NCBI GenBank assembly: GCA_964607515.1
Contig: CAZSKU010000012.1
Location: 1,058-65,057 of the forward strand
Length of the DNA: 64,000 nucleotides
DNA from: an uncultured bacterium
Lineage (GTDB): Bacteria; Fermentibacterota; Fermentibacteria; Fermentibacterales; JCC-6
Direction of reading: 5' to 3'
Each line of letters starts with the position of its first letter. Position 1 is the stretch's first letter. Below the pieces are notes generated by a model, which had not been told where the DNA came from, did not search any database, and worked only from the letters and a program-made list of their open reading frames with translations. The position numbers and the translations under genes are program-made. Shown in pieces: positions 5,998-55,892 of the stretch.

Positions 5998-6473
5998 GGC
6001 TCTTCGCGGCCCTTCTTCTTCCCCGGGACACCGTGGACATACTGGATCGGTGGTCCCGCGAGTGGCTCGAAGGGCGGCCAGGGGTGCGCCGGGTGTCCCG
6101 TGAGAACCTCCACCTGACCCTGAAGTTCTACGGGGAATACCCTCTCGAGAAAGCACGGCGGGAGATGGAACGGGCATGGTCGCTCCTGGGCGACGAACCC
6201 CTGCGTTTCGACCTGACCGAGACCGGATCCTTCGGCGGAAGGGTGCTCTGGGCCGGGGGCTTTTTCTCGTCCGGGGTCGGGCTTCTGGCTACGGCCCTGG
6301 GGGAGAGGAACCACAGGCCCCACGTTACCGTGGCCAGGATTTCCCGTGGAGAGCCGCCCCCTCCGCCTTCGCTCCCCTCCGGGCTTTCCGGCGGTTTTCA
6401 GGGAATGGCGCTGATGGAGAGCACTCTCGCTTCCGGGGGTTCTGTCTACCGACAGGCCACCCTCTGGAGTTGA
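5994..6473 (+). CDS. thpR: RNA 2',3'-cyclic phosphodiesterase (2H family, ThpR/LigT)
   Basis: Two H-x-T/S-x motifs (HLTLKF and HVTVAR) spaced as in the 2H phosphoesterase family. The TTG start overlaps the cinA stop. Confidence 0.7.
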
Positions 6474-6568
6474 GGGGTTGCCATGAGAACACATGTTCAC
6501 TATTCTACGGCGATGGCTGGAGCGGGGTCCCCTTTGCAGGGTCGCCTTGCGGGAAGAAAGGTGTAGCC

Positions 6569-7612
6569 ATGAGTAAACCGGAAGATTCGTCACAGGAGAG
6601 GGCGCGGGCGCTGGACGCCGCCTTCCAGCAGATTCAGAAGAAATTCGGCCAGGGCGCCATCATGCGGCTGGGAGACAACACCGCCATGAAAGTCGATGTG
6701 ATCCCCACCGGCAGCATCTCCCTTGACGCCGCGCTGGGCATCGGAGGGATTCCCCGGGGCAGGGCGATTGAGGTCTTCGGCGCCGAAAGCAGCGGCAAGA
6801 CCACCCTGGCCCTGCACATGCTCGCCCAGGCTCAGGGCGCCGGGGGGGAGGTGGCCTTCATAGACGCCGAGCACGCCCTGGACCCCGCCTACGCGGAGCG
6901 CCTCGGGCTCAACATCGACAACCTTCTGGTGGCCCAGCCGGAAACCGGTGAGCAGGCTCTGGAGATAACCGAAACCCTGGTGCGCTCCAATGCCATGGAC
7001 GCCATCGTCATAGATTCCGTGGCCGCCCTGGTTCCCAAGGCCGAGATCGAAGGGGAGATGGGCGACAGCCACGTCGGCCTTCAGGCCCGGCTGATGTCCC
7101 AGGCCCTGCGGAAGCTCACCGGAGCCGTGAGCAAGTCCCGCACCTCGGTCATCTTTATAAACCAGATCAGAATGAAGATCGGCGTGATGTTCGGCAATCC
7201 CGAGACCACCTCCGGAGGCAGGGCTCTGAAGTTCTACGCCAGCGTCCGGCTGGACGTCCGGCGGGTGGCCTCCATAAAGAACGGTGAAGATGTGGTAGGC
7301 AGCCGAACCCGGGTGAAGGTCGTGAAGAACAAGATGGCCCCGCCCTTCAAGGAGTGCGAATTCGACATCCTCCACGGCGAGGGGATATCCCGGGAGGGGG
7401 AACTCCTCGACCTGGGTCTTGAGAAGAAGGTCATCAACCGGCGGGGAACCTGGTACTCCCTGGGCGACCTTCAGCTTGGCCAGGGAAGGGATAATTCCCG
7501 GATTTTTCTGAAGGAGAACCCCGAGATCACCCTGAAACTCGAGACCGATCTCCGCACTCTTCTCGGGCTTCCCGCACAACCTGAAAAAGCCACGTCCCAG
7601 GCCGGGCAGTGA
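6569..7612 (+). CDS. recA: recombinase RecA
   Basis: Near-universal RecA sequence: [23 protein letters not shown]...[13 protein letters not shown]...[34 protein letters not shown]. Confidence 0.97.
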
Positions 7613-16744: not shown

Positions 16745-16796
16745 TCCGCCGCCACTATAGTTGTTTGTCGCGGCATTCACAATGAAGGGGGCCCTA

Positions 16797-19643
16797 ATGG
16801 CATCGAGGTTCCTGTTCGCCTTCGCGGTCGTCTTTTCGGTATCGGCTGCATCGGCAACCGGATACGGAAGGAACCGGGTGTACACCGGCGATAATCCCTG
16901 GTGGGAGCTTCATTCCAGCCGGTTCACCGTCTATTACGAAGAGGGCAACGAACAGGTTGCGGAGAGTACGGTGGTGATCGCCGAGAGAGCCATGCAGGGC
17001 CTGTCGTCCACCTTCGAGTACCTTCCTTCCCAGCCGATACCTGTGGTGGTCTATCGCTCCCCCGGCAGGTTCCGCCAGACAACCATCATCAGCGGGGAGG
17101 TCGGCGAGGGGGTCGGCGGTTTCACAGAGTTCTTCAAGGGCCGGGTGGTTGTTCCCTACGGCGGGGTCTTCAGCGAGTACCGCCACGTGCTGGAGCACGA
17201 AGTGAACCACGCCTTCGTCTACGACATGCTCTACGACAGAAGTCTGTATGGAATAGTCCGCACGAAGGCCCCCCTGTGGTCCCTGGAGGGGCTGGCCGAG
17301 TACACCTCCCAGGGGTGGGACATAGACAGCGAGTCGGAATTCCGGGACATGGTAATCGCCAACATGATCGTACCCATCCCGCAACTGTCCGCCCGGGGCG
17401 ACTACCTGGTGTACCGGGAGGGCCAGGCCGTCTATCACTTCATGGTGCAGCGATACGGCGAGGCCCGGTACATAACCTTCGTCCGGCACCTCAGGGACAA
17501 CGAGGGGCTCTCCGCGGCGATCAGGGAAGCATTCGACATGACCGTGGACCAGTTTAGCGAGAGGTTCATGGAGTGGGCCAGGGAAACCTACTGGGCCCCT
17601 GTGTCCACGGGCGAGAGCCCGTCGGACATAGGGTCCCCGGTGATTCTCGACGGACGGAACGGCAGGAAGAGGGTTGTTCTGGCGGAACCGGTCATCTCTC
17701 CCGACGGTTCCATGGCCGCCGGAGTGGAGGTGCACCGGGGAAGGTTCTCCACGGTGGTGCGTGACGCCGGCGACGGCCGGGAGATACTCCGGCCGCTCTC
17801 CGGAGGCGGACTGGTGGAATACAGCCCGTCGCCTATGTTCAGGACCGTCGCCTTCTCCCCCGGGTCCGACTCCCTGGCGGTGGCATACCAGGGGTTGTTC
17901 TCCGACGGACTGATGGTTCTGAAGATCGGCGGCGGATCCAGAAGGCTTTCCCGGGACTTCGAGCTGGTCAGGGACCCGGTGTGGAACCCCTCCGGGGGAG
18001 CGGTGGCTTTCAGCGCCCTGAATGAAGGCGTTCTGGACATCTTCCTGTGGGAGCCCGCAACCGGCCGTCTGGAGAAACTCACCCGGGGCGACAGCAGCCC
18101 CAGGGACCTCTGGTGGGGCGACCCGGGAATCCTGTTCGTGGGCGAAAGGCAAAACGGCCGGATCTACACCCTGAACTCCGTCACTCCCGGGAGCGATTCC
18201 GAGATCCTTTACGAAACCCCCTACCCGATCCAGAACCCGGTGTCCTATCCGGAGGGCGTGGTCTTCATCATGGATACCGGCTGCGGCGCCAACTTCCACC
18301 TGCTTTCCTCCGAGACCGGGGAGGTCGCCAGACTCACCGACCTCTACCGCACCCCATCTTCCCTCTCCAGGGCCTCCGGAACGGCGCTGTCACTCTTCTC
18401 GGCTTCGGACTGGAGCGGCGCCGGGCTTTTCATCACCAGGGACCTGTCCCTGCGGGAAGGCCGGTCCACGGAGTGCCCACGGGAGGGTGTGGAACCGGAT
18501 TCCTCCTACGCCCCGGTTCCCGGATTCAACCCGGAATGGCGCATATCTCCGTACGATCCGGCTCTGAGCATAGACTACGTGAGCGCTTCGGCGGGATTCG
18601 ACAGTTACGCCGGGCTGGCGGGCTACTCTCAGTTCATCTTCAGCGACGTCCTCGCAAGGCATCAGCTGGCACTTCTGATGGACCTCAACGGAGAGGTGAG
18701 CGACGTGGACGCTGGGGTTTTCTACTCCAACATCGAAAAGCCCGTCCAGTTCGGGGTTTCCCTGTATCGGCAGGCCAACAGGTACCGCTTCACCGACACC
18801 GTGACCGGCGACCGGGACTACGTAAGGGACACTGAGATAGGGGCGGGTTTGGAGTTCAGGTATCCCTTCACCAGGTCCCTGAGGGCTTCCCTGGGGACGT
18901 CCTACCGCCGGCTTGACCGGGAGGGTCTCTGGTCCACCGACATCAACCTTCGGGAGAACATCTTCAGCATCACCGGCCGGATGGTGAAGGACAACGCCCT
19001 GTGGGGTTCCACCGGACCCAGGGTGGGAAGCCGGCTGTCGCTTACCGCGGACTGGGCCCCGGGGCTTGGGGACAACGCCTCGTACACAACCCTGCAGGCG
19101 GATATGAGGAACTACACGTGGATATCCGGGCAGGTCACCCTGGCCACCAGACTCGCGGCGGGCGCCAGTTTCGGGGACGACCCCCAGAGGTTTTTCCTCG
19201 GGGGAGCGATTCCCCACAGGAGAAGCACCGGCGACGTTGAGGGGGTCGAGGACCTGTTCGGCTTCTACACCAGCTACGCCGACCTTCTCCGGGGCTTCGA
19301 CTACGTGGAGTTCAACGGTTCGAAGTACGCCCTGGGCTCCCTGGAACTCCGATTCCCGGTGGTCAATCAGCTCAGTCTCGCGGCTCCCCTGCCGGTCACC
19401 CTCACCGGTGGCCGGGGGGTGATCTTCACCGACATCGGAACCGCCGTGGACGACGTGAATGATTTCCGGGGCGCCTCCACCGGAGGCGGATACAGGCTGG
19501 AGGATCTCAAGATGGGGTTCGGCTTCGGGCTCAGGTTCAATCTCAGCTTCTTCGTCTTCCTGTGGGATTGCGCCTGGAGAACCGATCTGAACGGTGTCAG
19601 TGCCAAACCCGAGCACTACGTGACCCTCGGAGCCGAGTTCTGA
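16797..19643 (+). CDS. Omp85-family outer-membrane protein with N-terminal gluzincin-like (peptidase MA-type) domain and PD40 beta-propeller instead of POTRA repeats
   Basis: A signal peptide (MASRFLFAFAVVFSVSAASA) is followed by HEVNH (HExxH) and an EGLAEY third-ligand-like motif about 35 aa downstream. PD40-like blades follow (ISPDGSMAA, AFSPGSDSLAV, WNPSGGAVAFSA). The C-terminal roughly 330 aa is Omp85/BamA-like and ends ...RTDLNGVSAKPEHYVTLGAEF with a C-terminal Phe. It sits directly after rseP, where bamA normally lies. Confidence 0.8.
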   Translation: MASRFLFAFAVVFSVSAASATGYGRNRVYTGDNPWWELHSSRFTVYYEEGNEQVAESTVVIAERAMQGLSSTFEYLPSQPIPVVVYRSPGRFRQTTIISGEVGEGVGGFTEFFKGRVVVPYGGVFSEYRHVLEHEVNHAFVYDMLYDRSLYGIVRTKAPLWSLEGLAEYTSQGWDIDSESEFRDMVIANMIVPIPQLSARGDYLVYREGQAVYHFMVQRYGEARYITFVRHLRDNEGLSAAIREAFDMTVDQFSERFMEWARETYWAPVSTGESPSDIGSPVILDGRNGRKRVVLAEPVISPDGSMAAGVEVHRGRFSTVVRDAGDGREILRPLSGGGLVEYSPSPMFRTVAFSPGSDSLAVAYQGLFSDGLMVLKIGGGSRRLSRDFELVRDPVWNPSGGAVAFSALNEGVLDIFLWEPATGRLEKLTRGDSSPRDLWWGDPGILFVGERQNGRIYTLNSVTPGSDSEILYETPYPIQNPVSYPEGVVFIMDTGCGANFHLLSSETGEVARLTDLYRTPSSLSRASGTALSLFSASDWSGAGLFITRDLSLREGRSTECPREGVEPDSSYAPVPGFNPEWRISPYDPALSIDYVSASAGFDSYAGLAGYSQFIFSDVLARHQLALLMDLNGEVSDVDAGVFYSNIEKPVQFGVSLYRQANRYRFTDTVTGDRDYVRDTEIGAGLEFRYPFTRSLRASLGTSYRRLDREGLWSTDINLRENIFSITGRMVKDNALWGSTGPRVGSRLSLTADWAPGLGDNASYTTLQADMRNYTWISGQVTLATRLAAGASFGDDPQRFFLGGAIPHRRSTGDVEGVEDLFGFYTSYADLLRGFDYVEFNGSKYALGSLELRFPVVNQLSLAAPLPVTLTGGRGVIFTDIGTAVDDVNDFRGASTGGGYRLEDLKMGFGFGLRFNLSFFVFLWDCAWRTDLNGVSAKPEHYVTLGAEF

Positions 19644-24152: not shown

Positions 24153-24175
24153 AGCAAGAAGGGTGCCAAATGACT
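24153..24175 (+). repeat. direct repeat copy 2 (AGCAAGAAGGGTGCCAAATGACT), containing the uvrD start codon
   Basis: See copy 1 at 23833..23857. Confidence 0.4.
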
Positions 24176-29077: not shown

Positions 29078-30364
29078 ATGACAAGGACAACGCCCCTGCT
29101 TCTCCTGTTCCTGGCCGCTCTTGCTGCGGCCCAGACCGGAGAGACCCAGCCACCCCCCGCGGACTCCGGGGTCGTCGAGTCGGCCGCGGAACCCTTACCG
29201 GCGGAACCCGAACCGGTTCCCGCGGCTGAGATCGCCCCCCCGGGGGGAATACTGGTGACGGACTACCCGGACGACGCCGGCGACAGGCTCATGGTCTGTT
29301 TCGAGCCGGGCGCCGAAGCCGGCGATCCCGACCTCTTTGCGGCGTACCAGGTTTTCAGGAGACCCCTCGGGGCGCCTGACTCGGCCTGGGCCATGGTTAA
29401 CATGATCCCGGTGGGCGAGGGAACCAGCTTCATAGACGGCTTCGACCCGGACTTCCCCGTGGAGGAGGGTGCGCAGTACGAGTACCGGGTTGACGCACTC
29501 TACCTGGATCAGACCGTGGTTGCGGGGGAGGCCATTGCCGCCCAGGAGGTCGCATCCGGCCAGTGGTTCCACACCGGCAAAGTCAGGGTGCTGGTCGCCT
29601 GCGCCATATTCCTCGGCCTCATCTTCTACTTCTTCTCCCGGGCCAAGACCGGCGCCAGCATGTACCTTCGGCCGATCGCCGGCATCGAGGCCATTGACGA
29701 GGCCATCGGGCGGGCCACGGAAATGGGCAAGCCCATTCTTTACGTCCCGGGGCTTTCCTACATCGAAGACGTGGCAACCATCGCCAGTCTGACCATCCTG
29801 GGAAGGGTGGCCAGGAAGGTGGCGGAGTACCAGACTCCCCTGTGCGTACCCAACACGGACCCCATAGTCTTCACCGTGGCGGAGGAGGCGGTGAAGCAGG
29901 CGTACCTGGAGGCCGGCCGCCCCGACTCCTACGACCCTGACAGCGTGTTCTTCCTGACCCAGAGCCAGTTCGCCTTCGTGGCGGGGGTGAACGGGATCAT
30001 GATGCGCCAGAAGCCCGCCACCAACTTCTACCTGGGCATGTTCTGGGCTGAGAGCCTGATTCTTGCCGAGACGGGGTCCCTCTCCGGGGCGATCCAGATA
30101 GCCGGCACCGACGCGGTCACCCAGCTTCCCTTCTTCATCACCACCTGCGACTACACCCTGATCGGCGAGGAACTCTACGCCGCCAGCGCCTACCTCAGCC
30201 GGGAGCCCATGCAGATGGGCTCCATCAAGGGACTGGACGCGTGCAAGGCGATACTGATGGTCTTCATCACACTGGGCATCATTCTCGCCCTTGTGGATGT
30301 GGCTGCGGAAACCCAAACCCTGGCGTGGCTCAAAGACCTGGTAACGTCTCAGGTGATGGACTAG
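29078..30364 (+). CDS. uncharacterised membrane protein A1: signal peptide, Ig-like extracytoplasmic domain, TM, conserved ~180-aa core, C-terminal TM
   Basis: MTRTTPLLLLFLAALAAAQT signal peptide. An extracytoplasmic domain contains DGFDPDFP...YEYRVD. TM helix VLVACAIFLGLIFYFF. Conserved core YLRPIAGIEAIDEAIGRATEMGKPILYVPG...FFITTCDYTLIGEELYAASAYL. No family recognised. First gene of the coupled operon. Confidence 0.6.
   Translation: MTRTTPLLLLFLAALAAAQTGETQPPPADSGVVESAAEPLPAEPEPVPAAEIAPPGGILVTDYPDDAGDRLMVCFEPGAEAGDPDLFAAYQVFRRPLGAPDSAWAMVNMIPVGEGTSFIDGFDPDFPVEEGAQYEYRVDALYLDQTVVAGEAIAAQEVASGQWFHTGKVRVLVACAIFLGLIFYFFSRAKTGASMYLRPIAGIEAIDEAIGRATEMGKPILYVPGLSYIEDVATIASLTILGRVARKVAEYQTPLCVPNTDPIVFTVAEEAVKQAYLEAGRPDSYDPDSVFFLTQSQFAFVAGVNGIMMRQKPATNFYLGMFWAESLILAETGSLSGAIQIAGTDAVTQLPFFITTCDYTLIGEELYAASAYLSREPMQMGSIKGLDACKAILMVFITLGIILALVDVAAETQTLAWLKDLVTSQVMD
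29668..30196 (+). repeat. near-identical duplicated segment, copy 1 (inside A1); perfect-identity core about 29768..30195
   Basis: By direct comparison it matches 39258..39784. About 428 bp are 100% identical, with few-mismatch flanks. The coding sequence on either side is divergent. Confidence 0.8.
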
Positions 30365-30386
30365 CCCACCGGAAGGAGCTTGAGCA

Positions 30387-31031
30387 GTGAAGAGAGCTGT
30401 TCCCCTCATGATAGTCCTGGTGGGCGGAGTACTGATGATTATCCAGTACTTCATTCCCCACCGGATATCCCAGGATATTTTCGACAACTACACCATCTGG
30501 ATCCCCATCATAGGAGCCTTCGCCCTGGTTCTGGGCGTTGGCAGCCTCACCAGGCTTCACGGCCACCGGGTGAGGAACCGGGCTCCCAACTGGCCCTACA
30601 GCCTGGCGGTGATCGTTCCGATCTACCTCATGCCCATATTCGCCCTGCTCCTTCCGACCTCGGTCGGAGGCGGCATGGAAGCCCCCAGCGTATTCAACTT
30701 CGCCTTCATGCACATACAGGTTCCCATCCAGTCCACCATGTTCAGCCTCTTGGCCTTCTACATCGCCAGCGCCGCTTTCCGGGCCTTCCGGGCCAAGAGC
30801 CTTCTAGCCACGGTGCTGCTGCTCACGGCGGTGATAGTGATGATGGGGCAGGTTCCCATCGGCGAGCTTCTGGGAAGCTGGTTCCCGAAGCTGGGCCTCT
30901 GGATAATCGACTTCCCCAACAACGCCGCCAAGAGGGCCATCGGTCTCGGGGTGGGATTCGGCATTCTGGCCACCCAGCTCAAGATCATTTTCGGCGTCGA
31001 GCGTAATTGGCTCGGCGGCGCCGGTGATTAG
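30387..31031 (+). CDS. uncharacterised polytopic membrane protein B (about 5-6 TM)
   Basis: The GTG start is preceded by GGAAGGAG. Multiple hydrophobic helices. No family recognised. Confidence 0.55.
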   Translation: MKRAVPLMIVLVGGVLMIIQYFIPHRISQDIFDNYTIWIPIIGAFALVLGVGSLTRLHGHRVRNRAPNWPYSLAVIVPIYLMPIFALLLPTSVGGGMEAPSVFNFAFMHIQVPIQSTMFSLLAFYIASAAFRAFRAKSLLATVLLLTAVIVMMGQVPIGELLGSWFPKLGLWIIDFPNNAAKRAIGLGVGFGILATQLKIIFGVERNWLGGAGD

Positions 31032-31042
31032 GGGGTGAAGAC

Positions 31043-32044
31043 ATGAAGGAAAACATCTGGAGCAGAATGCTCAACCTGGACAGGCGATGGATCTTCCTCT
31101 TCATAGGGGTCGTCTGCATCGTTCCGTTCTTCATTCCCTTCGGGCTGCCGCTGATACCCACCCAGCACGTCATTTCCATTTTCGACTACATCGAGGGGCT
31201 CGGCCCCGAGAACGCCATCTTCGTGAGTTTCGACTTCGACCCGGGCACGGACCCGGAGAACATGCCCATGGCGGTGGCCGTCACCAGGCACGCCTTCGCC
31301 AGGCATATCCCTGTGTTCTTCACCGCCAACGCCCCGCTGGCGCAGGGAATGCTGGAGTCGGGATTCGCCTACGTGACCAATCCTCACAGCGAAGACTACT
31401 TCCACGTGGTGACCTGGCCCGAGTGGGCCCCCTACCGGGAGATGGGCATCACCGAAAGGGACCAGCTGGAGGCCGCCTGGGAGGCTGACGGGAACGTGCT
31501 TCCTGCGAATGCCGCCGGATGGGTGTTCGAAGGACGTGATTTCGCCAAGCTGGGCTACCTCCCCTACTTCAGCCTCGTGATCCTGGGCATGACCTCCTCC
31601 ATCGCAGCCCAGTACCCGGAGGACATGAGCGGCAACCCCTTGGCGGAGATGCCCATGCTTCAGGAGCACAAGAGCCTCAGGGAAGTGGACCTTGCCACGA
31701 CCTTCGCCGGAAGCGCCGCCTGCATGTGGTGGGTCACCTACGCCCGTGAAAAGATCGGCCTTCCGGTGGCCTTCGGGGTCACTGCGGTCAGCGCCACCGA
31801 CTACACCATCTACATCCAGTCGGGCCAGCTGGTGGGCCAGATGGGCGGACTGCGGGGCGCCGCGGAGTACGAGGTTCTCCTGCAGCAGAAAGGCTACTTC
31901 GAGCAACCCGACAGAGCCTTCATCGGAATGGACGTCCAGAACGCGGCGCACCTGCTGATCTTCTTCTTCATCGTGCTTGGCAACATCGCCTACTTCGCCG
32001 GGGGTTTCCATAAAAAGGGCGCACTGCTGAAGGGAAGGAGGTAG
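31043..32044 (+). CDS. uncharacterised membrane-anchored protein C (N- and C-terminal TM helices flanking a soluble domain)
   Basis: RBS GGGGGTGAAG. N-terminal helix WIFLFIGVVCIVPFFIPFGLPLI and C-terminal helix LLIFFFIVLGNIAYFAGGF. Lies 11 bp after B. Confidence 0.55.
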   Translation: MKENIWSRMLNLDRRWIFLFIGVVCIVPFFIPFGLPLIPTQHVISIFDYIEGLGPENAIFVSFDFDPGTDPENMPMAVAVTRHAFARHIPVFFTANAPLAQGMLESGFAYVTNPHSEDYFHVVTWPEWAPYREMGITERDQLEAAWEADGNVLPANAAGWVFEGRDFAKLGYLPYFSLVILGMTSSIAAQYPEDMSGNPLAEMPMLQEHKSLREVDLATTFAGSAACMWWVTYAREKIGLPVAFGVTAVSATDYTIYIQSGQLVGQMGGLRGAAEYEVLLQQKGYFEQPDRAFIGMDVQNAAHLLIFFFIVLGNIAYFAGGFHKKGALLKGRR

Positions 32045-32047
32045 ACC

Positions 32048-32677
32048 GTGTACGAAACCATCGGAATCTGGGTAGCGGCCATCTTCACCCTGGCCATGTA
32101 CTCCTTCCTTTACAAGGAGAACCCCCTGTACCGCCTCGGTGAGCATCTGGTAGTCGGCATATCAACAGGGTACTTCATCGTTCTCACCTACACCCAGGTG
32201 TTGAAACCCAGGCTCATAGACGCCATCGCCCTGGAGAACCAGTGGATCCTGGTGATTCCGGCCCTGCTGGGTCTTCTGTACGTCACCCGGTTTTTCCCCA
32301 AGATCGCCTGGCTCTCCCGGTACCCCATGGCCTTCATCATGGGCACAAGCATGGGCGTGGGCTTCCCGCTGTCCATGAAGGCCAGCGTCCTGAGGCAGCT
32401 GGAAGCCACGATTCTGCCGTTGTACCAGGCGGGGATGCCCTGGCAGATCCTGGCGGGCAACATCATCCTGGTGTTCGGAACCCTGGCGGCTCTGATCTAC
32501 TTCTTCTTCAGCAAGCCCCACAGGGGTCTTTTCTTCGGAACCGGGTCCAAGATCGGGATCTGGGTCATCATGATCGGATTCGGAGCCACCTTCGGCTTCA
32601 CCGTCATGGGCCGGATCAGCCTGTTGATCGGAAGGGTGCAGTTCCTTCTGAAGGACTGGCTGGGTGTGATCAACTGA
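32048..32677 (+). CDS. uncharacterised polytopic membrane protein D (about 5-6 TM)
   Basis: The GTG start is 3 nt after the stop of C. Similar size and topology to B. Confidence 0.55.
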   Translation: MYETIGIWVAAIFTLAMYSFLYKENPLYRLGEHLVVGISTGYFIVLTYTQVLKPRLIDAIALENQWILVIPALLGLLYVTRFFPKIAWLSRYPMAFIMGTSMGVGFPLSMKASVLRQLEATILPLYQAGMPWQILAGNIILVFGTLAALIYFFFSKPHRGLFFGTGSKIGIWVIMIGFGATFGFTVMGRISLLIGRVQFLLKDWLGVIN

Positions 32678-32750
32678 CGGGAACGCCCCCGGTCCTTCCC
32701 GGGCCGGGGGCGCCCATCCTTCCAGAGTGTTCCGGGAGAGGGAGGCTGGC

Positions 32751-35498
32751 ATGAACGGCCTGATCCTGGTAACGGACATCGGAAGCACCACCACAAAGGC
32801 TCTTCTGCTGGATACCGCCGGGGGAATACTCACCCCGGTGGAGAGTTGCGAGGAGCCCACCACCGTGGAAAAACCCCACGAAGACGTGGCCGTCGGTCTG
32901 TTCCGGGCGGTGGACGGCTTGTCCCGCCTGTCCGGAGTGCAGCTGAGGGATGGCGGCCGGTTCCTGGTGCCGTTTTACGCCACCAGTTCAGCGGGAGGCG
33001 GTCTGCAGATACTGGTGATCGCCCTGGCATCCCGTGACACCGGAACAGTGGCAAGGGCGGTGACCTGCGGGGCCGGAGGGGTGGTGCTGGACGCTTTCAA
33101 CATCGACGATGATACCCCAAGAGTGGAGAAGATTCAGAGGATGGCGGGCCTCTCCCCCGACCTGGTGGTGCTGGCGGGAGGGTACGAGGACGGGGCCCTG
33201 GCCGCGGTGGTGAACATGGCCCAGTTGCTTGCCCAGGCAAGCCCCAAACCGAAATACCGGGCAGGAACCCTTCCGGTGGTGTTCTGCGGAAACTCGAAGG
33301 CGGGGGAGTTCGTCAGGGAAGCCCTCGGGGCTGGTTTCAGGCTTTACTGCACGGAGAACATCAGGCCCTCGGGGCTGGAACTCAATCTCAGACCCGCCGT
33401 ACAGATGGTCCAAAGACTCTTCATGGACCACGTGATGCAGATGGCGCCGGGCTACAGTTCCATAGCCGGAGCCGTGTCGGCTCCGATTGTCCCCACACCC
33501 TCGGGCGTGGAACGGATACTTTCCCTGTGGTGCCGGGAGACCGGCAAGTGTGCTCTGCTTGCGGATATGGGCGGGGCCACCACGGACGTGTTCACCGCGG
33601 TCGCCGGGGGGGTCGCGCGAACCGTGAGCGCCAACATCGGGATGAGTTACAGCCTGTCAAACATCCTCAGGGAGGCCGGTCTTCCGGGGATCATGAGGCA
33701 CCTGCCCGGGGTGGATCCTTCACCGGTGCGGGACCGGATACTGGAGAAGACCCTGTTTCCAACCCGGCCCCCCGGCGACGACTTCGGGCTTCGGGTGGAA
33801 CACTCCTGCGCCGCGGAAGGCATGGCCCTGGCCTGCCGGCAGCACCTGGAGTTCTCCTACCGACGGGCCAGGGTGGGTTTTCTCGATCGGCTCAAGCTTC
33901 TTGGAAGGTGCAAGTTCGATCAGAGGTTCAGAACCCTGGACGAGAAGGAAGGCTTCAGCCTGAGCGACTTCGGAACCCTGATCGGAGCCGGCGGCGTCCT
34001 GGCCCACGCCCCAGGGCGTAGGGCCGCCTGGATACTCGCCCAGGGATTCTTTCCCCGGGGAGTCACCACCCTGATGGTGGACAGCCCTTTTCACAGCCCC
34101 CACATGGGTGTGCTCAGCAGCTCCTTTCCCGAGATGGCCCTGGGCTACTACCGCAGCCACTGCCTGAAATCGGTCTGCCGGGTGGTCACCCCGACAGGCT
34201 CCCTCCGGCCTGGCAGGCCGGGGATCGGAGTAAGGGGCCCCCACGTCGAGACGATGGTCCTGGGCGGCGACTTCCTGTACCTGGAGGACGGGAAGGGAAC
34301 GTCCGCCGGAAACTGGCGGGAGACCGAGAGCATTCCGATGCTGGTTGACTGCAGGACGAACCCCGATCAGACACTTCCCGTGGATTTCGACAAGAGGCCG
34401 GCGGAGGTGCTCCCGGTGCCCGCCGCCCGTGAACGACAGGCGAGGTTCTCCGAGCCGGGAGAAATCCTGCACACCTTCTCCCTGCCCTATCCGGGAGAGA
34501 TACTGGTGGGCGCCGGAGATACCGTGGAGCCCGGAACCCTCCTGGGAAGGAACCCTCTCAGCCCTCCAATGGTCTACTTCCTGGACGTCAGGACATCGGG
34601 GGGCTATGACGACGCCACTCCCACCGGGGAAATCCTGGACGGGGTGCTGGTGGCTCCGGGAGACGTTGTGAACCCGGGAAAGCAGGTGTTCCGCAGGATT
34701 GTCAGGCACGGCCTCACCCGGGAGGTACACGAGTTGAAAAGCCCCGTCCGGGGCTTGGTGACCGGTATCGTCCCCCCCGGGCTTGTCTGCCTCAGGGAGA
34801 TACAGGACTACGACGGCAAGCCCCACGTGGTGGATGTGGCGGGACCCCTGGGGATAAAGCCAGGGCACATCCACAGATTCCTGAAGGTGAAGAAGGGCGA
34901 TTTCGTGCTTCAGGGGCAGGCTCTGGCGGCGGGGGAAAGGTTTCCGATGGTAAAGAGCCCGTCCGCTGGCACCATCACAGAGGTGGACAGGGAGTCGGGC
35001 ACCGTGACCGTGCACTACAGAACGGTTCCCGTGGACATGCGATCGCCCATCCACGGGGTTGTGTCGGGGGTTGTTCCGGAGCACTCCGTGACCCTGTCCT
35101 TCCGGGGAACAGTGATGGAGGGGGTGCTGGGGCTGGGAAGGGACACCTACGGCGTCTTCTCCACGGAGCCGGCCCCTGGAGCCCTGGTTCTCAGGATGGG
35201 AACGATGACTCCGGAGGATCTGAGGCGGGCCGTGGACTGCGGCGCGGCGGCGGTGGTATCTGCGGGGATTTCAGGGGAACTGGTGTCCGGCTACCTGGGG
35301 GAGGATCCCGGGGTGATACTCACCGGGGGCGAGGACCTCCCTGTATCCCTGATGGCCGTGTGCGGCGCGGGCTTGAGAAGGTTTTCCGGGGATATATGGA
35401 GGACTCTGGAGGGGCTGCCCGGCCGCCGGGGCGCTCTGTTCACAACCACCAGGATAAGGGCCGGGGTGGAGAGACCCAGGCTTTTCATGGAGGAATGA
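32751..35498 (+). CDS. large ASKHA-superfamily ATPase (GlmL/MutL/EutA-like N-terminal half) fused to a ~450-aa C-terminal region with repeated barrel-sandwich-hybrid-like hairpins
   Basis: The ATG is preceded by GGGAGG. LVTDIGSTTTKALLLD (phosphate-1) and LLADMGGATTDVFTAV (phosphate-2) are typical of GlmL-type actin-fold ATPases. The C-terminus has repeated GDxVxPGxxL-type motifs (GDTVEPGTLLG, GDVVNPGKQVF, KKGDFVLQGQAL). Confidence 0.65.
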   Translation: MNGLILVTDIGSTTTKALLLDTAGGILTPVESCEEPTTVEKPHEDVAVGLFRAVDGLSRLSGVQLRDGGRFLVPFYATSSAGGGLQILVIALASRDTGTVARAVTCGAGGVVLDAFNIDDDTPRVEKIQRMAGLSPDLVVLAGGYEDGALAAVVNMAQLLAQASPKPKYRAGTLPVVFCGNSKAGEFVREALGAGFRLYCTENIRPSGLELNLRPAVQMVQRLFMDHVMQMAPGYSSIAGAVSAPIVPTPSGVERILSLWCRETGKCALLADMGGATTDVFTAVAGGVARTVSANIGMSYSLSNILREAGLPGIMRHLPGVDPSPVRDRILEKTLFPTRPPGDDFGLRVEHSCAAEGMALACRQHLEFSYRRARVGFLDRLKLLGRCKFDQRFRTLDEKEGFSLSDFGTLIGAGGVLAHAPGRRAAWILAQGFFPRGVTTLMVDSPFHSPHMGVLSSSFPEMALGYYRSHCLKSVCRVVTPTGSLRPGRPGIGVRGPHVETMVLGGDFLYLEDGKGTSAGNWRETESIPMLVDCRTNPDQTLPVDFDKRPAEVLPVPAARERQARFSEPGEILHTFSLPYPGEILVGAGDTVEPGTLLGRNPLSPPMVYFLDVRTSGGYDDATPTGEILDGVLVAPGDVVNPGKQVFRRIVRHGLTREVHELKSPVRGLVTGIVPPGLVCLREIQDYDGKPHVVDVAGPLGIKPGHIHRFLKVKKGDFVLQGQALAAGERFPMVKSPSAGTITEVDRESGTVTVHYRTVPVDMRSPIHGVVSGVVPEHSVTLSFRGTVMEGVLGLGRDTYGVFSTEPAPGALVLRMGTMTPEDLRRAVDCGAAAVVSAGISGELVSGYLGEDPGVILTGGEDLPVSLMAVCGAGLRRFSGDIWRTLEGLPGRRGALFTTTRIRAGVERPRLFMEE

Positions 35499-35815
35499 TG
35501 AATCCAGAGGAGCTGATGGGTTGTTTTCCCGGAGTAGTCCTGGACTCCGGAAACCATGTTCTTTTCCGTGGATTGCGGATAGGCTCGCTGGAAACATCCG
35601 GCGGAACAGTTATCTTCAGGCTTCTGGTCCACCGGCTGGATTACGGGCCGCTGCTTTCGGAGTACCCCTTCCTGATTCCGTCCACTGAAGGCTTTGTAGA
35701 AGTGCTGCTGGGGGATACGCCCGGTGAGGAGGTTGTGTCGGCCCTGCTGGAGTGCATCAGGAGCTCCGTGGACCGTGCCGCCGAAACATCGGGAGAGAGT
35801 ATAATTGCGCAGTGA
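35495..35815 (+). CDS. small hypothetical protein (possibly roadblock/LC7-like), translationally coupled to the ATPase
   Basis: ATGA overlap with the upstream stop. 106 aa. The roadblock-like assignment is tentative. Confidence 0.4.
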
Positions 35816-35841
35816 AACCCGAAACCGCAGGGAGGTTTGAC

Positions 35842-35994
35842 ATGTGGGTTTGCCAGGCGTGCGGGTGGGTCTACGATCCCGCTCAGGGTGACCCGGACGG
35901 AGGAATCGCTCCGGGGACGGCGTTCGAGGATATCCCCGACGACTGGGTGTGCCCGGTCTGCGGCGTTGGCAAGGACATGTTCGAGAAGGAATGA
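35842..35994 (+). CDS. rubredoxin
   Basis: [12 protein letters not shown]...[16 protein letters not shown]: two CxxCG knuckles. RBS GGAGG. 50 aa. Confidence 0.85.
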
Positions 35995-36260
35995 GGATTC
36001 CAGTGAAAGAAACCATCGTTGCCATACTGGTATCCCACAGGAACCAGGCCGCTGTCAATGTTCAGAAGGTGCTGACCGGCTGGGGCTGCATGATCAAGAC
36101 AAGGCTCGGGATACACGAGGGCACCATGGAGGACTGCTCCGAGAGGGGGCTCATCATCCTGAGCCTGACAGGAGAGGAAGAGAAGAAAGAGGAACTGGTC
36201 AGGAAGCTCAACGCCCTGAGCGACGTAACCGCCAAGAGGGTGGACCTGGCGCTTGACTGA
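35991..36260 (+). CDS. small ACT-like protein (TM1266/TIGR03959-like)
   Basis: ATGA overlap with rubredoxin. [34 protein letters not shown]...[27 protein letters not shown] resembles TM1266-type ACT-fold proteins. Confidence 0.4.
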
Positions 36261-37035
36261 CCGGCTCGCCGGCGTTCTCGAGGATGTCTATTCCCGATGG
36301 AATCGCCGGGAGTTCGTGCATCCCGATCCTCTGGAGTTCCTCTACCCCTACGATGACCTCCCCGACCGGGAGATTGCCGGACTGGTGGCCTCGGGGCTGG
36401 CCTACGGCAGGGTGGCACAGATCCTCGGAAGCGTTGGCGCGGTGCTGGAAGCCCTGGGGACATCGCCTTCCTCTCTGCCCGAGAACCGGCTGGAAGGAAT
36501 ACTCGCCGGATTCAGACACCGGTTCACCCCGGACTCGGACCTGGTCCGGGCGATCCGCGGCGCCCTTCGCATTCAGAGGGAACACGGATCCCTCGGCGGA
36601 TTCGTCGCCCGGGCGGCCACGGAAGGCGGAATTCTGGAAGCCCAGCGGAGGCTCGTCGCCGGGATTCTCGGCGACGGGCCGCCCTCGAGCCTCCTCTCCT
36701 GCCCCACCCGGGGAAGCTGCTGCAAAAGGCTGAACCTCTGGTTCAGATGGATGGTCAGAAGTGATTCGGTGGATCCCGGGGGATGGGCAGGCATCCAGGC
36801 TTCCGAGCTGCTTGTTCCCCTGGACACCCACATGTGGAAGATCGGCAGAAGGCTGGGCTTCACCGGCCGGAACAGCCCGGACCTGAGGGCGGCCATGGAA
36901 ATCACCCGGGGTTTCGGAAGGGTGAATCCGGGAGATCCGGTGAAGTACGATTTCGCCCTGACAAGGTTCGGAATCAGGTCCGATCTCACCCTGGAATCGC
37001 TGTTCTCGGAGCTTGACCCGCCGGAAGGGTTATAG
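36253..37035 (+). CDS. TIGR02757/DUF2400-family protein (HhH-GPD-like)
   Basis: TTG start with an 8-nt overlap onto the upstream gene. Profile LEFLYPYDDLPDREIAGLVASGLAYGRVAQI...LVPLDTHMWKIGRRLG. Confidence 0.55.
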   Translation: MTDRLAGVLEDVYSRWNRREFVHPDPLEFLYPYDDLPDREIAGLVASGLAYGRVAQILGSVGAVLEALGTSPSSLPENRLEGILAGFRHRFTPDSDLVRAIRGALRIQREHGSLGGFVARAATEGGILEAQRRLVAGILGDGPPSSLLSCPTRGSCCKRLNLWFRWMVRSDSVDPGGWAGIQASELLVPLDTHMWKIGRRLGFTGRNSPDLRAAMEITRGFGRVNPGDPVKYDFALTRFGIRSDLTLESLFSELDPPEGL

Positions 37036-37053: not shown

Positions 37054-37129
<76 letters not shown>

Positions 37130-38737: not shown

Positions 38738-38766
38738 ATTATACCAGGCCTGGTGTGCTTCTCCAA
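38738..38766 (-). promoter_or_regulatory. candidate sigma70 promoter for selD (-35 TTGGAG, 17-nt spacer, -10 TATAAT)
   Basis: Read on the minus strand: TTGGAGaagcacaccaggcctggTATAAT. It lies about 25 nt upstream of the 38710 ATG. Confidence 0.4.
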
Positions 38767-38796
38767 TTCCGGGGACGGTCGCGAAAGGGCGGTCAC

Positions 38797-39951
38797 ATGG
38801 TTCACCTGCTCATGCCGGGGGTACTCTGCCTGATGGTTCCGGAAATAGCGTCGGTAACCGATGTTCCCAACGACGCCGGCGAATTGCTGATGGTGGAGGT
38901 GTCGTTTCCCTCAGGGGTCGAGGAGGTCGGCGGTTTCCTCCTCTGGCGCACACCCGCCGACCTGGACGCCTGGGAGCTGGTGATGGTGGAGGCTCTCCCG
39001 CTGGAGTCCAACCTGCTGATGGACGGTTTCGATCCGGACTATCCCCTGGTTCCCGGAACCCGGTACCTGTACCGTCCCGGATTGATCACCCTTCAGGGGG
39101 ACACCCTCCCCGGCCCGGTCTTCACTGGCGCCGAAGCTCCCTCGGGGTCATGGTTCAACACCGGCGAGACGCCCACCCTGGCGGCCTGCCTGATTTTCAT
39201 GGCGCTGATCTTCTACTACTTCCAGAGAGCCCTCAAGGGCGCGGAGTTCTACCTCCGGCCGATCGCCGGCATCGAGGCCATTGACGAAGCCATCGGACGG
39301 GCCACGGAAATGGGCAAGCCCATTCTTTACGTCCCGGGGCTTTCCACCATAGACGACGTGGCAACCATCGCCAGTCTGACCATCCTGGGAAGGGTGGCCA
39401 GGAAGGTGGCGGAGTACCAGACTCCCCTGTGCGTACCCAACACGGACCCCATAGTCTTCACCGTGGCGGAGGAGGCGGTGAAGCAGGCGTACCTGGAGGC
39501 CGGCCGCCCCGACTCCTACGACCCTGACAGCGTGTTCTTCCTGACCCAGAGCCAGTTCGCCTTCGTGGCGGGGGTGAACGGGATCATGATGCGCCAGAAG
39601 CCCGCCACCAACTTCTACCTGGGCATGTTCTGGGCTGAGAGCCTGATTCTTGCCGAGACGGGGTCCCTCTCCGGGGCGATCCAGATAGCCGGCACCGACG
39701 CGGTCACCCAGCTTCCCTTCTTCATCACCACCTGCGACTACACCCTGATCGGCGAGGAACTCTACGCCGCCAGCGCCTACCTGGGGCGGGAGCCCAGGCA
39801 GATGGGGGGTATAAAAAGCCTTGACGCATGCAAGGTCATCATCATGACCCTTATAGTTTTGGGAGTAATCGCATTCCTGGCGGATTTCCTGGCCGGAACG
39901 GATTTCCTTCCGCGGATCAGGGGCTGGATCACCACCCCCGAGGGCTTCTGA
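38797..39951 (+). CDS. uncharacterised membrane protein A2, orphan paralog of A1
   Basis: Same architecture as A1: N-terminal hydrophobic leader, Ig-like domain with DGFDPDYP, a TM helix, a core essentially identical to A1, and a divergent C-terminal TM tail. RBS GCGAAAGGGCGG resembles the A1 RBS GCGAAAGGCGGG. Confidence 0.6.
   Translation: MVHLLMPGVLCLMVPEIASVTDVPNDAGELLMVEVSFPSGVEEVGGFLLWRTPADLDAWELVMVEALPLESNLLMDGFDPDYPLVPGTRYLYRPGLITLQGDTLPGPVFTGAEAPSGSWFNTGETPTLAACLIFMALIFYYFQRALKGAEFYLRPIAGIEAIDEAIGRATEMGKPILYVPGLSTIDDVATIASLTILGRVARKVAEYQTPLCVPNTDPIVFTVAEEAVKQAYLEAGRPDSYDPDSVFFLTQSQFAFVAGVNGIMMRQKPATNFYLGMFWAESLILAETGSLSGAIQIAGTDAVTQLPFFITTCDYTLIGEELYAASAYLGREPRQMGGIKSLDACKVIIMTLIVLGVIAFLADFLAGTDFLPRIRGWITTPEGF
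39258..39784 (+). repeat. near-identical duplicated segment, copy 2 (inside A2)
   Basis: See copy 1 at 29668..30196. Confidence 0.8.
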
Positions 39952-53058: not shown

Positions 53059-55749
53059 TCAGTCCCGGCTGCCGTTTATCTCCTTCCACACCTCCACCAG
53101 CCCCTCCTCCCCGGGTTCCTGGCTCCAGCGCCTGTTCACGAAAAGGTTCACCATCCTGTTGTTGGATGAGGTGGTCTGAGCCTCTATCCGTCTGGCTCCC
53201 CAGTCCCTGGCTATCTTCTCGCAGAAGTCCGTGAGGATTCCCCCGAGGCCCATGTTCTGCCAGGGGTCGCCCACCAGAACCGCGTACTCGGCGGTTTCCA
53301 TTCCCGGATCCGCCACCAGCCTTCCCACTCCGAGGAGCTTTCTGGCGCCGTCGTGTTCCAGCTCCGCCACGATTGCCAGTTCCCTGTCATAGTCTATGTA
53401 GCAGTGTCTGACAGCCGCCTCGTGGGTTGCCCAGTGGTAGAAGAACCTGAACCTGGAGTAGATGGATTCCCGGGAGCAGGAGCCCAGCAGCTCCAGCCAC
53501 ATGGGTTCGTCCTCCGGGCGGATCGGCCGCAGGAGCACCCGGGTGCCGTCCTTCATGACCGCGGTTTCCACGAACTCTTCCGGATAGGGCCGCAGCGCCA
53601 GGTGACCGAAGGGTTTTCCGGGTACTGCGCCGGGGTCCACCAGTGCCCTGGCGTCCAGGGCAAGAGCGCCGTTTTCATCGACCAGCAGCGGGTTGATGTC
53701 CATCTCCCTGATCGCCGGGTTGTCGCTGGCGATGTAGGAGAGCCTCATCACGGTGGTGACAAGGGCGTCCATGTCCACCCCGGGCCTTCCCCGGTAGCCC
53801 TTCAGCAGAGGCAGTATTCGAAGCTGCTCCAGCATCCGCATCACCAGGGTCTCGTTCAGCGGCGGGAACCCCAGGGCCCTGTCTTCAAGGATCTCCGCGT
53901 TGACCCCCCCGGCTCCCAGCATGATCACCGAACCGAACACCGGATCCCGCTTGAAGCCCGCTATCATCTCCACACCCTGGAAGACGTTGGCCATCTTCTG
54001 CACCGTAACCCCCCGGATAAGCGCTCCCGGCTTCCATTCCGCAGCCCTCTTCACGATCCTGTCGAAAGCCGTCCTCACCTGAAGGTGGTCTTCGAGGTTC
54101 AGCTCCACGCCGCCCGCCTCGGATTTGTGCGTGATGTCCGGGGAATCGAGCTTCAGCACCACCGGGTATCCCGTTTTCTCCGCGGCGGCCACCGCATCGT
54201 CAGGCCCCTTCGCAGGCACCGGCAGGGTGGAGGAAATCCCGTAGAACTCGAGGATACGCTTGGAGTCGGTCTCCGATAGCATTTTCGTGTTCTGCGCGGG
54301 AAGACCGTCGAGGAAAGCTGAAGCTTTGCCGCGGCCTTCCGAAAGATCGAGCCTGATGTCCCGGGGAGTCTGGTGAAGGGATTCTAGGTTGCGGGAATAA
54401 CTCACCAGAGTCATGAAAGCTTCGACGGCCTGTTCAGGGGTGTCGTAGACCGGAATACCGCACTCAGCAAGTATCCTGGCTCCCTCCCTGACCGTCTCTC
54501 CCCCCATCCAGGCCGCCAGAACGGGCTTCCTTGAGCTTTCCGAGAGCTTGCCAATGGATTTAGCGACACCGTCGGGTTTTGTCATGGCCTGGGGTGTAAG
54601 GATCACCAGCAGCGCGTCCACCCCCTTGTCCGCCAGAACCAGAGAGGATGCCTTCTCATAGCGCTTCGTGTTGGCGTCACCCAGGATGTCCACCGGGTTC
54701 CCGCCGGACCAGAAGCCCGGAAGGCACTCGTCCAGTGCGGACACGGTCTCTCCGGACAACTCCGCAAGCGACCCGTTTCCCGCCATGAGCGCGTCCACCG
54801 CCATCACACCGGGACCTCCGGCATTGGACACTATTCCCAGCCTTGGTCCCTTTGGAATCCTCTTTCGCCCGATGAGTTCGGCGCATCCGAATATTCCGCC
54901 CACGTTAAGCACCCGGGCCATGCCCGCCCGGGAGAAGGCCGCGTCGTACACCGAATCCTCCGAGACCATGGCCCCCGTATGGGAAGCGGCCACGGCGGCG
55001 GATCTGGGAAAACGGCCCGCCTTGTACACGATGATGGGTTTTGTTCTGGCGAACGCCCTGGAGGCGGTCATGAACCTTCTGGCCCTGGTCACCGATTCCA
55101 CGTAGAGGATTATGGATTCGGTGGACTCGTCTTCGCCGAAGTAGTCAATCAGGTCGGCGAAATCAACATCCAGGGCATTTCCCACCGAGACGAAGGCCGA
55201 GAAGCCGATTTTTTCCTGCCTGGCCCAGTCCAGCACCGAGGTGCACAGTGCGCCGGACTGGCTGATGAAGGCCACGCTTCCCTTTTCAGGCATGGCGGGG
55301 GCGAAGCTGGCGTTGAGGTTCGCCGAAGGGACTATGACCCCCAGGCAGTTGGGCCCAAGCACCCTCATCTCAGGATTGTCCCTGAGTATGCCCTCCAGGT
55401 TCCGCTGCATGGCAGCCCCTTCGGGCCCTGATTCCCCGAAGCCGGCGGACATGATGATGACGCCTCTGACGCCGGCCGCGGCACACTCCCTCAGGATGCC
55501 CTCCACCTCGCCCGCCGGGGAACACACCGTCACCAGGTCGGGAGTTCTGGGAAGGGACCCGATGGATGGGTAGCATGGAACCCCCAGGACCGCTTCGCTG
55601 CCGGGATTCACAGGGTACACCACACCCCGGAAGGCGCTCCCCACCAGGTTCCTCAAAACCCTCCCCCCGACGCTGTTGGGGTTGATGGTGACTCCGGTGA
55701 TGGCGATTCTCGTGGGTTTCAGAATGCTGTCCAGACCGTGAACGTTCAT
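53059..55749 (-). CDS. Pat/YfiQ-like protein acetyltransferase (NDP-forming acyl-CoA synthetase alpha/beta domains fused to C-terminal GNAT)
   Basis: CoA-binding and ligase-CoA domains, an ATP-grasp region, and a C-terminal GNAT (VGRLVADPGMETAEYAVLVGDPWQNMGLGG). I chose the internal start MNVHGLD, which has GGAGG 9 nt upstream. Confidence 0.8.
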   Translation of the reverse strand: MNVHGLDSILKPTRIAITGVTINPNSVGGRVLRNLVGSAFRGVVYPVNPGSEAVLGVPCYPSIGSLPRTPDLVTVCSPAGEVEGILRECAAAGVRGVIIMSAGFGESGPEGAAMQRNLEGILRDNPEMRVLGPNCLGVIVPSANLNASFAPAMPEKGSVAFISQSGALCTSVLDWARQEKIGFSAFVSVGNALDVDFADLIDYFGEDESTESIILYVESVTRARRFMTASRAFARTKPIIVYKAGRFPRSAAVAASHTGAMVSEDSVYDAAFSRAGMARVLNVGGIFGCAELIGRKRIPKGPRLGIVSNAGGPGVMAVDALMAGNGSLAELSGETVSALDECLPGFWSGGNPVDILGDANTKRYEKASSLVLADKGVDALLVILTPQAMTKPDGVAKSIGKLSESSRKPVLAAWMGGETVREGARILAECGIPVYDTPEQAVEAFMTLVSYSRNLESLHQTPRDIRLDLSEGRGKASAFLDGLPAQNTKMLSETDSKRILEFYGISSTLPVPAKGPDDAVAAAEKTGYPVVLKLDSPDITHKSEAGGVELNLEDHLQVRTAFDRIVKRAAEWKPGALIRGVTVQKMANVFQGVEMIAGFKRDPVFGSVIMLGAGGVNAEILEDRALGFPPLNETLVMRMLEQLRILPLLKGYRGRPGVDMDALVTTVMRLSYIASDNPAIREMDINPLLVDENGALALDARALVDPGAVPGKPFGHLALRPYPEEFVETAVMKDGTRVLLRPIRPEDEPMWLELLGSCSRESIYSRFRFFYHWATHEAAVRHCYIDYDRELAIVAELEHDGARKLLGVGRLVADPGMETAEYAVLVGDPWQNMGLGGILTDFCEKIARDWGARRIEAQTTSSNNRMVNLFVNRRWSQEPGEEGLVEVWKEINGSRD

Positions 55750-55892
55750 GCTTGATGCCTCCGGTGGAGCGGAACTATTCCGATTAAGGGAATACACTGG
55801 TTCCTTTGCCGGAAATATGTTCACACCTGTTGCCCGGGGAGGTATGTCATCTGAAACGGAACATTGCATCGAGCCGGGAGTCCGCCCCCAAG

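Follow-up and report, generated by a model that had tools for sequence, protein, structure and literature searches.

A fixed-order four-gene membrane cassette and its recurrent GlmL-like ATPase partner at a Fermentibacteria locus

Gene array at the locus

The current work concerns a DNA stretch of 64,000 nucleotides (nt) from an uncultured bacterium of the Fermentibacterota (contig CAZSKU010000012.1; the whole stretch is named the window below), and more specifically an array of nine + strand genes designated A1, B, C, D, E, F, G, H and I (Table 1). The first four of these encode membrane proteins that are treated here as one system, ABCD, and the fifth encodes an ATPase of the acetate and sugar kinase/Hsc70/actin (ASKHA) superfamily. 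A first-pass annotation had described nine tightly packed genes between positions 29078 and 37035, and all of the corresponding open reading frames (ORFs) and gaps were reproduced (spacings from A1 to I being 22, 11, 3, 73, -4, 26, -4 and -8 nt), as were, by Pfam and NCBIfam scans, its domain calls for A1, E, G, H and I. The nearest named homologues belong to Candidatus Fermentibacteria (Hyd24-12), being Sabulitectum, Aegiribacteria and Fermentibacter.

Table 1 Genes of the array and the second DUF6754 gene of the window
Gene	Coordinates	Strand	Product	Family match
A1	29078-30364	+	DUF6754 subunit	Pfam, 388 bits
B	30387-31031	+	Membrane subunit with ~6 transmembrane helices, 214 amino acids	No family match
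C	31043-32044	+	Bitopic subunit	No family match
D	32048-32677	+	Polytopic membrane subunit, 209 amino acids	No family match
E	32751-35498	+	Fused EN-EC ATPase, 915 amino acids	Pfam MutL/GlmL PF13941
F	35495-35815	+	Protein of 106 amino acids	No family match
G	35842-35994	+	Rubredoxin	NCBIfam, 99.1 against a cut-off of 90
H	35991-36260	+	CPF_0552/TM1266-like ACT protein	NCBIfam, 103.7 against a cut-off of 85
I	36253-37035	+	DUF2400/TIGR02757 protein	NCBIfam, 169.6 against a cut-off of 139
A2	38755-39951	+	Second DUF6754 gene, orphan	Pfam, 382 bits

The ORF of E offers an alternative GTG start at position 32727, yet the E product listed in Table 1 is favoured because a GGAGG box lies directly 5' of the ATG at 32751. 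The same-strand run to which the array belongs reaches back to position 24170, with genes for a 2-hydroxyacid dehydrogenase, a split transketolase and a UvrD-type helicase located upstream of A1; since this tight run extends past A1, close packing alone cannot delimit a functional unit. Terminator-like sites within the array are not more frequent than in shuffled sequence, a result that is compatible with co-transcription of A1 to I and does not prove it. A tRNA-Phe(GAA) gene (37054-37129, +) begins 19 nt past the stop of gene I and ends the same-strand protein-coding run.

Fixed-order inheritance of ABCD across phyla

In a genome scan anchored on C, more than 593 species genomes were matched, the best 80 loci of which were analysed. 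Across these 80 genome loci, representing at least ten phyla, the A-B-C-D order and a shared strand are kept in essentially every locus that is long enough, with B invariably placed between A and C, and D invariably placed after C. Cassette hosts comprise Fermentibacteria, Cloacimonadota, WOR-3, Stahlbacteria, Zixibacteria, Ignavibacteria and Calditrichota, and furthermore Latescibacterota, Eisenbacteria, Armatimonadota, Nitrospirota, Planctomycetota (Scalindua), Poribacteria and Dormibacterota. When compared with the window proteins, homologues from other phyla are 58-65% identical in the cytoplasmic core of A, 45-49% in B, 35-41% in C and 44-52% in D, the A core being ~60% identical between Fermentibacteria and Planctomycetota. 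The C family numbers 5,207 representatives at 50% identity, and the search for DUF6754 homologues returned at least 8,000 candidates; the source annotations of these homologues are all 'hypothetical', 'DUF6754' or 'fibronectin type III domain-containing'.

A further conserved small ORF flanking the cassette was looked for in the related loci and was not found. The nearest neighbours of the cassette are heterogeneous housekeeping genes, the 121 proteins concerned matching 147 Pfam families; no neighbour family has more than six matches among these 121 proteins, and each recurrence is confined to one lineage. A link to one-carbon metabolism had suggested itself from gcvTHP/lplA in one lineage, from MTHFR and MetH in another and from MetK and AhcY in Ignavibacteria, and was rejected on the basis of this neighbour scan. 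The cassette was not found in the plasmid and phage records searched, A1 being absent from them; none of the eight proteins A1, B, C, D, E, F, H and I matched a PADLOC defence model; and no riboswitch or other cis-acting RNA was found upstream of the cassette.

In many phyla, the four genes are passed on together as a cassette whose order does not change. Because the order is fixed, because flanking extras are lacking and because the neighbours are mixed, ABCD can be regarded as an autonomous, vertically inherited four-subunit module, and from its fixed-order inheritance it follows that A to D almost certainly assemble into one inner-membrane complex. The gene-neighbourhood check proposed in the first-pass annotation thus found the co-occurrence of A to D strongly kept across phyla; nor did any of the four fall into a known transporter or secretion family.

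Genes F to I lie outside the conserved module

The same loci bear on the earlier description of all nine genes as one tightly coupled, operon-encoded functional system. Tight or overlapping spacing, a terminator signal that does not exceed chance and an identical array in a close relative (L090, which carries the full A-I array plus A2) agree with such a system, but F, H and I homologues accompany the cassette only in Fermentibacteria (L014-L016 and L090), the F-I genes directly follow D even where E does not intervene (L014 and L016), and they are absent beside the cassette in the other ~70 loci. Moreover, the equally tight upstream genes encode plain metabolic enzymes. The comparative sequence data therefore largely refute a single nine-gene system, which we consider very improbable: ABCD is the invariant part, and F, the rubredoxin, the ACT protein and the DUF2400 protein are, as judged from gene neighbourhoods, Fermentibacteria-specific bystanders outside the conserved module.

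Predicted anatomy of the four subunits

Topology was assigned from AlphaFold 2 (AF2) models in combination with the distribution of charged residues. A1 consists of a cleavable signal peptide, a Pro-rich linker, a periplasmic fibronectin type III (Fn3) domain, a transmembrane (TM) helix, a cytoplasmic core and a C-terminal TM helix, and both A1 and A2 give full-length matches to DUF6754 (PF20539) at the scores listed in Table 1 (gathering score 27). The cytoplasmic core, at about residues 195-375, is alpha/beta and highly conserved, with an enzyme-like conservation pattern and invariant polar residues. The N-terminal part of A ranges across phyla from almost nothing to ~700 amino acids (aa) of Fn3-like repeats; in A1 of the window it holds a single Fn3 domain, held near the membrane. 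B carries the invariant motifs FSLLAFYIASAAYRAFRA and PNxAAKR...G..LKIIxGxER, and D is marked by FSFLYKDNPFYKFAEH, YFFFSKEHKG and GFGASFGYTVMARISLLIGR.

The model of C (AF2; predicted local distance difference test score 90) shows an N-terminal TM helix, a three-layer alpha/beta domain of ~250 aa and a C-terminal TM helix. Since both basic termini are cytoplasmic, the domain between them is placed in the periplasm, and a location outside the cytoplasm is supported by the long CARDB-like, HEAT-like or helical insertions that homologues have at one loop of it. Its fold is generic Rossmann-like only, the best fold matches being weak and including periplasmic sugar-binding proteins (Z ≤10.5). At this surface loop, the window protein has a 50-aa insertion that is specific to Fermentibacteria. 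The loop is an insertion hot-spot of the C family, and in other lineages it accommodates CARDB-like repeats amounting to ~530 aa, an array of HEAT repeats, or helical segments of considerable length (P0381, P0480, P0444, P0431, P0490 and P0504). Taken together, the models suggest a complex with about 16 TM helices, whose periplasmic face would present the variable Fn3 arm of A and the Rossmann-like, binding-protein-like domain of C, and whose cytoplasmic face would present the very strongly conserved domain of A.

The first-pass statement that A to D cannot be assigned to any characterised family stands: B, C and D have no Pfam, NCBIfam, PADLOC or PDB sequence-family match, and A is DUF6754. 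Sequence-profile searches of the PDB with A, B, C, D, full-length E and EC (the C-terminal part of E, described below) retrieved no relatives, member-wise Pfam scans of 25 B and 25 D homologues gave scattered hydrophobic noise only, and no cofactor-binding motif was recognised in A to D by the Pfam and NCBIfam scans. Paralogy of B and D, which had been thought possible, was not detectable in a profile-profile comparison (hhalign probability 1.2%) and was rejected. Homology between any of the four subunits, or between one of them and EC, was likewise rejected, the four families being mutually unrelated.

A combination of variable periplasmic domains with a conserved cytoplasmic domain is also what a signalling receptor would display, in which periplasmic Fn3 and alpha/beta sensors would report to the cytoplasmic part of A as output domain, and histidine kinases or response regulators do adjoin the cassette in a few loci. 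We consider this quite unlikely, as no recognisable signalling output domain is present, the two additional polytopic subunits are atypical of receptors, and the regulator neighbours are lineage-specific and account for at most four of the 121 nearest neighbours.

The ATPase E and its module

E matches Pfam MutL (PF13941) with 246.1 bits (cut-off 27) across residues 5-467, which are followed by an extension of ~450 aa. Its scores against NCBIfam NF040745, NF040744 and TIGR01319 (133.9, 132.1 and 86.4 bits, with cut-offs of 475, 600 and 204) all lie below cut-off. The ASKHA nucleotide-binding motifs were sought with the patterns DxGSTxxK (phosphate-1), DxGGxTTD (phosphate-2) and GxGG (adenosine), and the corresponding TDIGSTTTK, ADMGGATTD and GAGGVLAHA are kept in at least 90% of 76 family members. 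The MutL/GlmL family includes chaperones that act on the conformation of glutamate mutase in an ATP-dependent manner (PMC4682846). No B12-dependent mutase or B12-binding gene is located beside E in the window, and no B12 mutase is found among the recurrent neighbours of ~160 related loci. The earlier identification of E as a GlmL-type ASKHA ATPase was borne out; its nucleotide motifs are intact, and there is no B12 mutase nearby.

Its size proved to be a local trait: outside Fermentibacteria, E is represented by two adjacent genes, EN (~600 aa) and EC (~375 aa), and the giant ATPase of the window is a lineage-specific fusion of these. EN gives a full-length MutL/GlmL match (E = 4e-131), and the stand-alone EN of L006 likewise scores below the NCBIfam GlmL cut-offs. 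EC consists of two to three barrel-sandwich-hybrid domains, an alpha/beta domain with an invariant T(Q/T)IRAGVxRP motif and a KOW-like tail; the extension of the window E aligns with the separate ~375-aa EC genes and is devoid of their KOW-like tail. Matches to RnfC_N and Biotin_lipoyl are sub-threshold in 14 of 19 EC members, the best RnfC_N match (E 1.5e-5) being below the gathering score. E is a distinctive protein of the GlmL branch of ASKHA proteins that has not been described previously.

Two small membrane proteins, S1 and S2, often precede EN-EC and are absent from the window. S1 (~150 aa) has two TM helices, a domain that is PH-like by eye and no family match, and S2 (~127 aa) is composed of a hydrophobic hairpin and a basic tail. 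F was compared with both and rejected as a counterpart of either. A duplicated ATPase module with the order S1-EN-EC-S2-EN-EC occurs in L106, L107, L112 and L114 (e.g. L112 7442-14727), each small membrane protein appearing to be paired with its own EN-EC, often without ABCD within 10 kb.

Association of the ATPase module with the cassette

The E module is found within 10 kb of ABCD in 30 of the 80 cassette-anchored loci, representing at least eight phyla, and is placed upstream, downstream (in Fermentibacteria) or divergently with respect to the cassette. In a genome of a few Mb, chance alone would be expected to bring the two together in <1% of cases, and the adjacency observed appears to be far above that level. 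The GlmL-like ASKHA module is the only recurrent partner of ABCD. Among the Fermentibacteria, E adjoins the cassette in the window and in L090, lies 4-6 kb off in L010 and L012, and is absent from the 10-kb flank in L013-L016. A single E module can adjoin one, two or three cassettes in tandem.

In six loci of one lineage (L006, L022, L023, L027, L061 and L065; e.g. L006 1-16000), a 12-gene array S1-S2-EN-EC-ABCD-ABCD is located on the same strand between gcvT-H-PA-PB and lplA, and therefore splits genes that normally make up one functional unit.

A2 and duplicated cassettes

The second DUF6754 gene, A2, lies 1.7 kb 3' of gene I, past the tRNA-Phe gene, an ArfB-like gene and selD. The cores of A1 and A2 are 96.8% identical in aa and 92.6% in nt sequence, differing almost wholly at synonymous sites, and their N-terminal periplasmic regions are 41% identical. 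An orphan A gene occupies the same relative position in L013, L014, L015 and L090; A cores are closer within a genome than between orthologues of different genomes in the window and in L014, and not so in L013 and L090. This pattern, as read from sequence comparison, suggests concerted evolution or very strong constraint, and fits with A1 and A2 being alternative A subunits that are constrained to one B-C-D set and undergo occasional gene conversion; A2 probably substitutes for A1 as partner of the same B, C and D proteins.

Elsewhere it is the whole cassette that is duplicated, and genomes of other phyla carry between two and four paralogues of it. At 15 loci or more, one EN-EC pair is succeeded by two or three such paralogues in tandem, whose A proteins differ greatly in the length of their N-termini. 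The contigs of one Zixibacteria metagenome-assembled genome include one that bears E with a three-cassette array (L088) and a second that bears a solitary cassette (L079). Cloacimonadota locus L019 (6630-9287) has the order A-A-B-C-D, with two tandem DUF6754 genes, followed by a second full cassette.

The first-pass annotation had proposed a transenvelope or membrane-remodelling machine. In its explicit form, ABCD would be a mechanical machine for envelope maintenance in which ATP hydrolysis by E is transmitted through the membrane to the Fn3 arm and the C domain; the motion so produced would have the cell wall, the outer membrane or some surface structure as its target and would not serve to move a solute. 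Partnerships of ASKHA ATPases with bitopic or polytopic membrane proteins are known from MreBCD, PilMNO and FtsA; most hosts of the cassette are diderm phyla, its context is that of chromosomal housekeeping genes (with none on plasmids or phages), and some Fn3 arrays of A, at up to ~700 aa, could span the periplasm. Against this, a single-copy housekeeping machine would not normally come as two to four paralogues in one genome that vary in their periplasmic parts, no outer-membrane or peptidoglycan-binding component is conserved beside the cassette, and the A protein of the window has one Fn3 domain, close to the membrane. Tandem paralogous cassettes with variable periplasmic parts fit somewhat better with a transporter-like module, and we regard the mechanical machine as rather unlikely.

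Favoured reading of the ABCD system

Considering that a conserved engine is combined with variable ligand-contacting parts and multiple paralogous copies, the reading that we favour, at a probability of roughly 0.35, is that ABCD may constitute a new multi-subunit inner-membrane transporter or mechanotransducer which is energised or serviced by the ASKHA module. B and D would then form the membrane path, C together with the Fn3 arm of A would capture or contact a periplasmic ligand, and the cytoplasmic core of A would act as the conserved coupling or catalytic element. The ASKHA module would dock on the cytoplasmic face of A, probably via its barrel-sandwich domains, and its ATP-driven closure would drive or reset the complex. 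One E module could serve several cassettes, and A1 and A2 would probably share one B-C-D set.

Several results weigh against this transporter or mechanotransducer. Internal repeats were not found in B or D, the member-wise scans of these two proteins revealed no similarity to any transporter family, and the resemblance of C to binding proteins is just that of a generic Rossmann-like fold (Z ≤10.5). A hint as to the substrate was sought from riboswitches and metabolic neighbours and was not obtained. In a reverse scan anchored on EC, which yielded more than 528 loci, 21 had at least 5 kb on both flanks, and ABCD is present at five of these; likewise, some fused E genes lack a cassette at distances of up to 10 kb. 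As E modules thus exist without a cassette, E may have a function of its own with S1 and S2. The earlier picture of a system built around its ATPase is accordingly inverted: ABCD is the invariant unit, and the E module is frequent yet separable (30 of 80 and five of 21 loci in the two scans).

This separability is also what would be expected if ABCD were an ATP-independent complex, either an ion-coupled transporter or a membrane enzyme, for which E acted in trans as an assembly or repair chaperone, possibly with other clients. The stoichiometry is unlike that of a fixed subunit, with one E per one to three cassettes, cassettes far from E and E without a cassette; MutL/GlmL is described as a reactivating chaperone, and GlmL, EutA and DdrA provide analogues which reactivate enzymes and do not power them. 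The enzyme-like conservation of the A core, with its invariant polar residues, could moreover mark a catalytic or cofactor site. We nonetheless hold such a chaperone to be doubtful, given that no cofactor-binding motif was recognised in A to D, that E does not reach the GlmL equivalog cut-offs and contains additional domains not present in reactivases, and that in many loci E is accompanied by membrane partners of its own, S1 and S2.

Returning to the transporter or mechanotransducer that we favour, a bolder version would have ABCD and EN/EC together form an unrecognised primary-active machine, composed entirely of uncharacterised families and powered by an ASKHA ATPase instead of a P-loop, P-type or rotary one; this we consider improbable on balance. 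Cassette and module are widespread, being found in the FCB and PVC groups, Nitrospirota, Armatimonadota and related, mostly uncultured phyla.

ABCD can be considered new in kind because it lies outside every characterised family tested, and literature searches for DUF6754, PF20539, PF13941, and GlmL or EutA with ASKHA returned nothing on the ABCD system; a remote relationship to an established class of transporters could still emerge once the complex is seen in three dimensions. The conservation of ABCD and its thousands of clusters, annotated as 'hypothetical', point to a fundamental role in the membrane across much of the uncultured bacterial world, one for which present models of the envelope and of transport do not account. 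If a GlmL-like ATPase does energise ABCD, this would represent a new coupling of ATP to a membrane complex, and would assign a first function to the many members of the GlmL/MutL family for which a B12 mutase partner is lacking. The analysis defines the boundaries of the module (A to D), its accessory module (S1, S2, EN and EC) and its apparently interchangeable A subunits.

Other features of the window

Four further features of the window were noted. A 960-aa protein (16761-19643, +) combines a weak N-terminal match to Peptidase_MA_2 (zinc-peptidase-like), below the Pfam cut-off, with a C-terminal Omp85-family barrel, which is an unusual combination. A 936-aa protein (53059-55869, -) is a fusion of an ADP-forming acyl-CoA synthetase with a C-terminal GNAT acetyltransferase, an architecture that is Pat-like. 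The ORF of RecA (6176-7612, +) has ~140 extra N-terminal residues, the RecA domain starting at residue 144, which may reflect a mis-called start or a real extension. A small signal recognition particle RNA is located at 1308-1406 (+; 76.8 bits).

Comparison with known systems

MreB-MreC-MreD, PilM-PilN-PilO and FtsA follow the same logic as the present loci, in that an actin-fold ATPase is encoded beside bitopic and polytopic membrane proteins. None of these families is related in sequence to the proteins studied here, and E belongs to the GlmL branch, in which polymerisation is not known.

Rnf and Nqr resemble ABCD with respect to a pair of small ~200-aa subunits with six TM helices and a bitopic subunit with a periplasmic domain. 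Their peripheral cytoplasmic subunit with an N-terminal barrel-sandwich hybrid may have a counterpart in EC; the RnfC_N and NqrA_N matches to EC are consistent with this, but they are confined to the N-terminal barrel-sandwich domain and are sub-threshold. They differ in that no matches to RnfA/E-NqrD/E, RnfD/NqrB or RnfG/NqrC were obtained, in that RnfA/E and NqrD/E are pairs of paralogues whereas B and D are not, and in that no Fe-S, flavin or NADH motifs were recognised.

The likeness to ABC-type importers is one of architecture only, namely two dissimilar subunits with ~6 TM helices, a tethered periplasmic alpha/beta domain and a cytoplasmic engine, to which the shared trait of multiple paralogous operons per genome can be added. 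No ABC ATPase, Walker motifs or ABC permease family was detectable in A to E by Pfam and NCBIfam scans, the candidate ATPase is of the actin/Hsp70 fold and not of the P-loop type, and A, with its own cytoplasmic domain, is without a counterpart in such importers.

The closest sequence relationship is that of E to the GlmL/MutL, EutA and DdrA-type reactivases (PF13941; NF040745 and TIGR01319), since residues 1-467 of E match PF13941 end to end with the nucleotide motifs kept. When compared with the GlmL type, however, E is twice as long, or else is paired with a ~375-aa barrel-sandwich/KOW protein and two small membrane proteins, and its recurrent neighbour is not a B12 mutase (glmS/glmE, oraS/oraE or kamD/kamE) but a membrane cassette.

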